Below, piece by piece: positions 3,634 to 5,353 of a stretch of DNA of 28,524 bases. Position numbers and translations under genes: made by a program. Location: the NCBI RefSeq assembly GCF_003334765.1, contig NZ_QOWT01000043.1. One strand, 5' to 3'. Source of the stretch: Escherichia coli (lineage in GTDB: Bacteria; Pseudomonadota; Gammaproteobacteria; Enterobacterales; Enterobacteriaceae). Position 1 is the first letter of the stretch, and each line of letters starts with the position of its first letter. Under the pieces are notes generated by a model, which worked only from the letters and a program-made list of their open reading frames with translations, searched no databases and was not told where the DNA came from.

Positions 3634-5353
3634 ATTACCTCGACATCAGAAAAAATTAAAATAATCCACATGCGGAAAGCTCTGAGCAGGAAACATCACC
3701 AAGGACGAAACCTCCTCTCTCTGTAAAGGATAGTTATCCATCCGGGGCAACCTATACCTTTACCATAACTTCCGGCAGAGTCACCTTGCTACTATGTTTA
3801 AGCCCTGCCGGGCAAATATGTCACTCAACGACCTTAGAGAGTTTTCTGTCAAAAGCAGCAGAGGCTAGCAGTTACTCTCTTATCTCTTATCTCCAGTCTT
3901 GAGTGCGAAGAGGCACATAACAAAGTTATGTGTTACTGACCACTCTTTCATTCAGGATGCTTAACCCCGTTATATGCATACAAGAAATGGGGCGCCAGAC
4001 TGCCGTCTGCAGTTCCATACCGCTAGATAAATATAGACACAGGCAGAGTGTCCCACATAATGCCAGTCTACAGTCGGATGACTCAGTTTATTAGTCTCAT
4101 TACACAGAGATACATAGCCCAGAAATAATCGCTGATCACTACCTGTTTTCAGGCCCAAGTCATCTGCAGATCAAGTATGTTATATTAGACAAAATAGTTA
4201 ATTAAGGAGAAAACCAATGCTATACCGATACACGTAAAAGGTACTCCACTGCCAGGATGATTGCCGGCGTCACATCCCAGCGTCGTCTCAAAAGAGGTAA
4301 CAGTTCATTAAGGCTTCTGATATTACGTTCCGTTAATACACGCACGCCATTCTTTGTCAGGTGGAATCCAGACTGATTACAGGTAATAGTGATATGACAA
4401 ACATCATTGCCAATATATACGGCCTCCATAGCTCTGAACCTAACATTCCAGAACCAAGAATATGGGGATGATTCAGACAAAAAAGACGCCTCTGGATATC
4501 GTTAAATAACGGATTCATAGTCAAATCACAATAGAATATTTCTCACCAGAACTTCATCTTATAATCATCTGTATAAGAAGTTAAACCTAGAGAAAAACAG
4601 AGTCGTCCTGTTGCTTCAGATATCGCAGTAACACTCGTCCTTCCGACATAGATGTTATTCCGTGACGGAACAGACTGACGTCTCTGGTTTCAGGCATCAA
4701 TGACATAACTCGGCTCCCTGGGTTGGTCTTGTTTCTGCATCACCACTTTAATAAATTTAAAGTGAGGCTCATATTTCAGCAGCACATTCTGAACATGTCT
4801 CCGGGGATTAGATTTCAAATCACGAAGTAGGCTACGCATAGCCAGCACTGCCTTAAGGCAGTGAACCTTCTGGACAACTGATCTCCGGCATGAAATCGTT
4901 CATCTTGCGGAAGAACAATTTTCTTCTGTGCTCCTCCGGTATGTAGGTCTGGTTTCAGATGCCCCCTTGTTTTTGAGCTCTCATCCTGAAATGAACTACT
5001 CATGCCTTCACCAATGAGATCTTCACTCCAAGAGCACGTTTCCGCAAAATGTACCCTCCTTCCATACAGATTTGCCCTAAACGATTATAGGGCAATGCTC
5101 TGAAAATACTCAAGTCAAATGCATATCAGGTTATACAATGGGGATTTCTATTATTTATCTCAAGAAATTCTGCAAAAAGCAGAATTATAAAAACAAAGAT
5201 GACAGTTAACGTGGTATTTTAGAAAATTCTTCTGGTAAACATTTCCAATGTGGACCGGATATGAGGAGCGAAATTTTTGCTTGAAACCATAAAGCCGATG
5301 ATAAATAGCGTGGGCTTTCAGAGCCATGAAACGTAACTATGCTGAGTATTTTC

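Follow-up and report, generated by a model that had tools for sequence, protein, structure and literature searches.

The closest described relative of the DNA analysed here is the Sci-1 T6SS cluster of enteroaggregative E. coli (EAEC) 042/17-2, which lies on the same pheU island and whose intact gene order in strain 042 is tssB, tssC, tssK, ... tssF, tssG, tssJ, tssE, ... the gene for a 101-aa protein (hyp101) and tagA. Its promoter, sci1, carries a Fur box (fur1) and the site GATC-I, which overlap the 3′ side of the −10 element (Brunet et al., PMC3145626). In other genomes tssE, the 101-aa gene and tagA are adjoining and intact, the intact relatives of the 101-aa protein being 101 aa in length. 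A second described system is the AggR-activated aai (Sci-2) T6SS cluster, running from tssB to tssH, and Yasir et al. (PMC6392122) listed aaiR/EC042_4580 between the IS pseudogenes EC042_4578/4579A and aaiS/EC042_4581. Decayed Sci-1-type remnants have a place in this comparison too: on E. coli islands or plasmids (TUM18780, F5656C1, STEC17-190 and pEC012-3) there is the same kind of wreck as the one described below, with tssB fragments fused to or near tssE fragments, truncated hyp101 and vasL genes and flanking IS elements. Leader-peptide attenuators and upstream mini-ORFs share with the present locus a strong Shine–Dalgarno (SD) motif and a very short ORF.

We analysed a stretch of 28,524 bp (the window) and, within it, the region 3634-5353. 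The homology, colinearity and lesions described below were observed directly, as was the distribution among genomes, and we consider it highly probable that a second T6SS cluster, of the Sci-1 type (T6SS-1 class), has left its non-functional wreckage here, and that neither the hairpin nor the antisense SD motif with its mini-ORF has a function. A Sci-1-type cluster would once have stood downstream of the aai (Sci-2) cluster in the EAEC pheU island; about 26 kb of it would have been lost, leaving the head (the tssB promoter and parts of tssB) and the tail (the 3′ half of tssE, aaiR and about 190 codons of tagA/vasL). Deletions, frameshifts and stop codons have inactivated every gene, and the remnant lies between an IS3-family element and the aaiS module. 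Parts of this picture are already known, as public annotation flags pieces as pseudogenes and AggR-dependent transcription has been published. The reading would explain ‘aaiR’ as a frameshifted relic gene from a different, Sci-1-type T6SS, and would mean that the EAEC pheU island once held a third T6SS locus, adjoining aai; beyond annotation, such an ordinary pseudogene remnant has little importance.

Location and surroundings of the region

Over its whole length the window is 99.993% identical with E. coli 042 (reverse complement of NC_017626.1, about 4,889,723-4,918,246) and is, on that identity, the pheU island of this enteroaggregative strain. The region is matched at an identity of at least 99.7% in 44 complete genomes of E. 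coli, which include strain 042 and the lineage of the O104:H4 outbreak. On the minus strand, the order is the IS3-family pseudo-element (next after aai tssH), the region, aaiS, a transposase fragment and the gene for a VasL-domain protein (Table 1). This last gene, aaiT/EC042_4582, is intact and distantly TagA-like, with a weak TssA N-terminal match; the IS, the remnant and aaiS lie between it and the aai cluster, and it is a possible TagA-type accessory gene of the aai system itself.

A search of the whole window against Rfam at gathering thresholds returned only the ALIL pseudoknot in the IS3-family transposase pseudogene, a structure that is expected in IS3 elements and is associated with programmed frameshifting, and the region was empty. 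With the threshold relaxed to E≤1 on 3400-5500, there was again no RNA family match in the region, and a tRNA/tmRNA scan returned none. In DNA searches, the 240-bp segment next to the IS had no detectable homologue outside the 44 aai-island genomes, no match extending beyond position 5113; an 8-bp inverted repeat lies within this segment at 5166-5186.

Table 1. Features in and around the region, in window coordinates
Feature	Position	Strand	Details
aai (Sci-2) T6SS cluster	25171 down to 6804	minus	AggR-activated; tssB to tssH
ALIL pseudoknot	6212-6327	minus	Rfam RF01497, 116 bits
IS3-family pseudo-element	about 5354-6600	minus	degenerate; terminal repeat TGAACCGCCCCGGG from 5354
240-bp segment	5114-5353		ends at the terminal repeat of the pseudo-element
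Relic sigma-70 promoter (predicted)	5084-5113	minus	TTGAGT-18 nt-TATAAT; upstream of the tssB start
tssB pseudogene	4807-5003	minus	codons 1-32 (5003-4908) and about 95-129 (4912/4878-4807)
tssE pseudogene	4608-4806	minus	3′ part only; about codons 75-140 of about 143-151, internal frameshift
hyp101 pseudogene	4217-4518	minus	101-aa protein; between tssE and tagA in Sci-1-type clusters
AaiR/EC042_4580/CBG37403.1	4220-4480	minus	residual 86-aa ORF of hyp101
TAAGGAG and MLYRYT*	4203-4237	plus	motif 4203-4209, ATG 4217-4219, stop 4235-4237 (six codons); antisense to the aaiR end and the aaiR-tagA spacer
tagA/vasL pseudogene	3680-4170	minus	ImpA_N-type TssA-like protein; roughly codons 1-190 of about 452
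8-bp perfect inverted repeat	3914-3932		CACATAAC-AAA-GTTATGTG, 3-nt loop; inside the tagA remnant
Upstream region of aaiS	3634-3796	minus	distal part 3682-3796 is tagA/vasL remnant
aaiS	3067-3633	minus	188-aa ORF
aaiT/EC042_4582	1434-2588	minus	384-aa VasL-domain protein

Gene fragments of a Sci-1-type cluster

The initial annotation had described the region as decayed and free of any ORF of 90 aa or more, and had noted a short hairpin and a mini-ORF behind a consensus SD motif; all three of the features that it noted are present, with offsets of at most one base. The longest ORFs are of 86 aa (AaiR), 74 aa (5206-5430, minus strand, running into the IS) and 62 aa, in agreement with that description. 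The suggestion of gene decay was also borne out: what the region holds are pseudogene fragments, from tssB, tssE, the 101-aa gene (AaiR) and tagA/vasL in Sci-1-type order, and comparison with intact orthologous regions showed frames that are disrupted relative to those of the intact relatives. As judged from these alignments, the minus strand of the region carries the colinear, broken remains of a T6SS cluster of Sci-1 type, in the order promoter-tssB-tssE-hyp101-tagA that is also found in 042 Sci-1.

At the head of the remnant, TssB residues 1-32 aligned by tblastn at 5003-4908 with 69% identity and residues 106-129 at 4878-4807 with 67% (E=1e-9 and 3e-5), and in DNA 5007-4907 and 4912-4806 correspond to nt −4 to 97 and 283-388 of Sci-1 tssB, at 77% each. 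The lesions of this gene are an internal deletion of 185 bp between the two pieces, followed by truncation and a junction to tssE. TssE residues about 75-140 were matched at 4800-4608 in two frames with 51-58% identity (E=1e-8 to 3e-9), and blastn with 4608-4793 gave about 70% identity with tssE genes, Sci-1 tssE of 042 among them; here the lesions are a 5′ truncation and the frameshift. The 101-aa protein was matched by tblastn with E=3e-44, with aa 1-17 of the family in one frame (4518-4468, 88% identity) and aa 18-99 in another (80%), and the stop codon of the pseudogene comes two codons early. For tagA/vasL, the N-terminus of VasL/TagA was matched by tblastn with E=6e-9 and 2.5e-14; Citrobacter VasL aa 4-190 aligned to 4161-3676 across in-frame stops, with 66% identity for aa 44-78 at 4051-3947. 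This remnant is 70-72% identical by blastn with intact loci and with 042 Sci-1 tagA, and its portion 3682-3865 is 68.6% identical with Citrobacter vasL. Alignment A2 shows deletions of 7-19 bp in it, and there are also frameshifts and several stops in frame; the remnant breaks off at about 3680.

The colinearity is also visible in a single blastn alignment, from 4793 to 3947, which covers tssE-hyp101-tagA at 70% identity with two of the compared loci, L003 and L014. None of DUF4222, TssC, the exonuclease and hyp133, taken as queries from related loci, has a remnant within 3000-5600. In RefSeq, two of the fragments are marked as pseudogenes, namely the tssB piece (“missing C-terminus”) and the frameshifted hypothetical gene that corresponds to hyp101, and the 32-codon tssB piece is CBG37402.1 (“partial”) in strain 042.

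Comparison with Sci-1 and with other remnants

The remnant has the same genes in the same order and orientation as 042 Sci-1, at 70-77% nucleotide identity, and its promoter core is homologous with the −35/−10 core of sci1. It differs from Sci-1 in lacking about 26 kb of core genes, tssC through tssJ (in Sci-1 coordinates from tssB nt 388 to tssE nt about 230), and in that each remaining gene is truncated or frameshifted. In addition, its 101-aa gene stands directly after tssE, as in L003 and L014, whereas 042 Sci-1 has a hyp133-GIY-YIG-exonuclease insert at this point.

Between the fragments and Sci-1, dN/dS was 0.09-0.36 with dS near saturation, values that point to a separate, long-functional cluster and not to a recent duplicate of Sci-1. 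We infer that the parent of the remnant was a separate cluster, which would have been functional, and under purifying selection, for most of its divergence from Sci-1 and would have decayed later. A closer intact parent was sought among complete E. coli genomes, with nothing found at 80-99% identity. Full-length protein relatives of the repaired 101-aa protein reach 81% identity at best, and at the DNA level their loci, too, are about 70% identical.

The remnants in TUM18780, F5656C1, STEC17-190 and pEC012-3 are only 70-77% identical with the one described here and differ from it in their tssB-side breakpoints. They keep a divergent DUF4222 gene upstream, whereas the IS3-family element takes its place in the window. 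In TUM18780, the diverged (70-76%) tssB′-′tssE remnant has its tssE-side breakpoint at a position homologous with that in the window (window 4800-4806, L006 8194-8198), and the tssB-side breakpoints are at TssB residue about 84 in TUM18780 and 129 in the window; the shared tssE-side breakpoint could reflect an old common deletion with secondary losses or a recombination-prone site. As a separate matter, the 042 Sci-1 tagA gene (L011 36071-37438; NC_017626.1 4884070-4885437) is one intact ORF of 455 aa, which current RefSeq splits into three ‘partial’ pseudogene features (ImpA_N, POTRA and VasL); this split looks like an annotation artefact.

The hairpin

The 8-bp perfect inverted repeat begins one base before the place where the initial annotation had put it (3915-3933). 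It occupies the place of the Sci-1 tagA codons His-His-Trp-Ser-Val-Met (HHWSVM), and forms the centre of a longer, imperfect repeat (3901-3945; arms of 21 nt), whose RNA has a predicted folding energy of −18.3 kcal/mol for the plus strand and −15.8 kcal/mol for the minus strand, with a z of about −3. Perfect 8-bp inverted repeats with loops of 3-10 nt number four in the region against 0.24 in dinucleotide shuffles. The shuffle rate of the region (about 0.14 per kb) is also exceeded by the whole window, with 18 such repeats (0.63 per kb); an excess over shuffles is thus general in natural sequence, and the hairpin is one of several. The density of these short repeats is 2.3 per kb in the region against 0.63 per kb window-wide, and further examples are a 9-bp palindrome with no loop at 4846-4863 and an 8-bp repeat at 5072-5095, which overlaps the relic −10 element.

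At the homologous place, Sci-1-type tagA has a related palindrome, CATCACTG-GT-CAGTGATG, from which the version in the window differs by a paired C>A/G>T change and a longer stem. The more distant vasL of ST131 has no repeat at the homologous codons. A conserved structure was considered on account of the apparent compensated arm change in Sci-1-type tagA, and was rejected, as ST131 vasL has none. A Rho-independent terminator was also rejected: the stem CACATAAC/GTTATGTG is A+T-rich, there is no T-run on either strand and a terminator scan does not report it. We read the hairpin as an inherited quasi-palindrome of coding sequence, probably with no function, and it may have been perfected by template switching, a mutational process by which quasi-palindromes are known to become perfect during replication.

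Relic promoter and transcription

The predicted relic promoter matches the sigma-70 consensus at 10 of 12 positions, and CCTATAAT is invariant across three loci (alignment A1). Upstream of sci1, strain 042 reads TATAATGATCAAAATT and the remnant reads TATAATCGTTTAGGG, which indicates that the −35 and −10 hexamers have been retained whereas the Fur/Dam switch (fur1 and GATC-I) has been lost. With these good hexamers, the relic promoter might still fire. Promoter-like sites in the region number six against 5.7 expected, which is chance level. A scan for an AggR site with a −10 element gave no convincing minus-strand site upstream of aaiS, and the same scan also missed the published aaiA promoter, so that its negative result carries no information.

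Published RNA-seq data on an aggR mutant (supplement of PMC6392122) place aaiR (log2 fold change −1.21) among the down-regulated genes, along with the IS pseudogenes that flank it (−1.22 and −1.88) and aaiS-U (−2.19 for aaiS). These data indicate that the stretch is transcribed, on the minus strand and in an AggR-dependent manner, and we infer read-through from the aai operon, that is from the aaiA promoter. The list of AggR-activated genes aaiR-U should be used with some caution, as it would then include read-through over pseudogenes.

The residual aaiR ORF

The 86-aa ORF is CBG37403.1 in strain 042 and takes the name AaiR from another record, and the RefSeq label of the gene is ‘hypothetical protein, frameshifted’. 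Members of the hyp101/AaiR family are recognized by a full-length ORF beside intact tssE and tagA genes, and the ORF in the window, with its frameshift after codon 17, falls outside this definition. Searches of the 101-aa family and of AaiS against Pfam and NCBIfam assigned no family, the sole match being an insignificant one to Peptidase_C80 (E=0.035).

Of 45 chromosomes with aaiC, 44 have kept the remnant. This follows from co-inheritance, because the islands are at least 99.7% identical, and is no evidence of selection; with the 44 copies so alike, there is too little variation for a formal selection test, and aaiR has extra disruptions in two lineages. In O104:H4 strains, a 5-bp deletion (TTACG) at 4323-4327 within aaiR is the sole difference across the region, and in six FORC_069-type genomes a copy of IS3 is inserted at 4325-4328. 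The same few bases of aaiR (4323-4328) have thus been disrupted twice, independently.

Alternative explanations

The initial annotation had likened TAAGGAG and the mini-ORF to a leader peptide whose downstream gene had been lost, and a perfect SD motif with a 7-nt spacing to the ATG, in a region that also has a stable hairpin (z about −3), is what one would look for if the two were the leader peptide and the cis-regulatory element of a since-lost gene. We give this reading a negligible probability and have rejected it. The window has two copies of TAAGGAG where 3.04 are expected, and 87 of 100 shuffles have at least two, so that the motif is no more frequent than by chance. The motif lies inside the aaiR-tagA spacer, and CTA, the second codon of the mini-ORF, is complementary to the stop codon of aaiR; in the intact orthologous loci the corresponding bases are TTACGGAAAG ... 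GTG, 2 nt different in length, and neither the SD motif nor the ATG is present. The mini-ORF is antisense to all of the gene remnants and to the known transcription, and the hairpin, which has no U-tract, is about 285 nt upstream of it and not downstream. On the plus strand, from the mini-ORF up to the IS at 5354, there is no ORF of more than 62 aa and no gene remnant, all homology being on the minus strand; there is no Rfam leader match, and the local RNA structure around the mini-ORF is nothing unusual (z=−1.1). Unlike leader-peptide attenuators, the locus has no downstream gene on the same strand, no terminator/antiterminator alternatives and no conservation, and it is antisense. The SD motif and the ATG arose by drift in the spacer and have no function. 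Both they and the hairpin are by-products of decay and are not worth following as regulatory elements.

A different question is whether the wreck is still partly active, in that a truncated AaiR is produced and acts together with the aai (Sci-2) T6SS, or that the relic sci1-type promoter gives AggR-independent transcription of aaiS-aaiU. If so, the neighbour would be regulated by a dead cluster that had been co-opted, but we hold this to be improbable. As a functional small protein of the AggR regulon, AaiR would be an N-terminally shortened form of the 101-aa T6SS-associated protein that is kept for aai; it is an annotated gene in the original 042 record, was AggR-dependent in RNA-seq (PMC6392122), is 80% identical with intact homologues at a dN/dS of 0.09 and is present in nearly all of the aaiC-positive chromosomes. 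At 80% identity and with its gene transcribed, a truncated protein could conceivably be made from the 86-aa ORF. However, with the frame broken after codon 17 this ORF needs a TTG start, or else an internal ATG that leaves 69 aa, and the further deletion in O104:H4 and the IS3 copies in FORC_069-type genomes have struck the ORF itself. The low dN/dS would stem from the long period before decay and not from present-day constraint, the partner genes tssE and tagA are destroyed, and the family has neither a Pfam or NCBIfam model nor a known function, so that we regard a working AaiR as very unlikely. The remnant as a regulatory spacer, in which the relic promoter, having lost the Fur box and GATC-I, would either drive transcription of aaiS-aaiU or modulate it independently of AggR, is a somewhat better prospect, albeit an unlikely one. 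The conserved hexamers with their invariant −10 element, the replacement of GATC-I/fur1 of sci1 (PMC3145626) and the smaller AggR fold change of aaiR compared with its neighbours (−1.21 against −1.88 and −2.19) would fit such a promoter, but these differences in fold change are small, and matches of this kind occur in the region at chance frequency. Moreover, aaiS, which lies downstream, is the most AggR-dependent gene, which argues against a strong AggR-independent promoter upstream, and the plasmid copy of aaiS works without the stretch, as IS3 abuts position 3796 there. Inert wreckage of a Sci-1-type cluster is the reading that we prefer.

The aaiS module and its plasmid copies

About 90 plasmids of E. 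coli, Shigella and Salmonella carry the aaiS gene together with the 163 bp upstream of it, at 95-98% identity. On an ETEC plasmid with eatA (L004), 3768-4163 matches window 3401-3796 at 97%, and the module occupies L004 3434-4163 (window 3067-3796). An IS3-family element abuts the exact equivalent of position 3796 on this plasmid, and its first 147 bp match the IS end in the window (5354-5500) at 93%. Since 3682-3796 is derived from tagA, the plasmid module appears to derive from a similar T6SS-remnant context, and it is plausible that 3797-5353 was removed on the plasmid by an IS-mediated adjacent deletion. Among the downstream genes, aaiS has the largest AggR dependence (−2.19).
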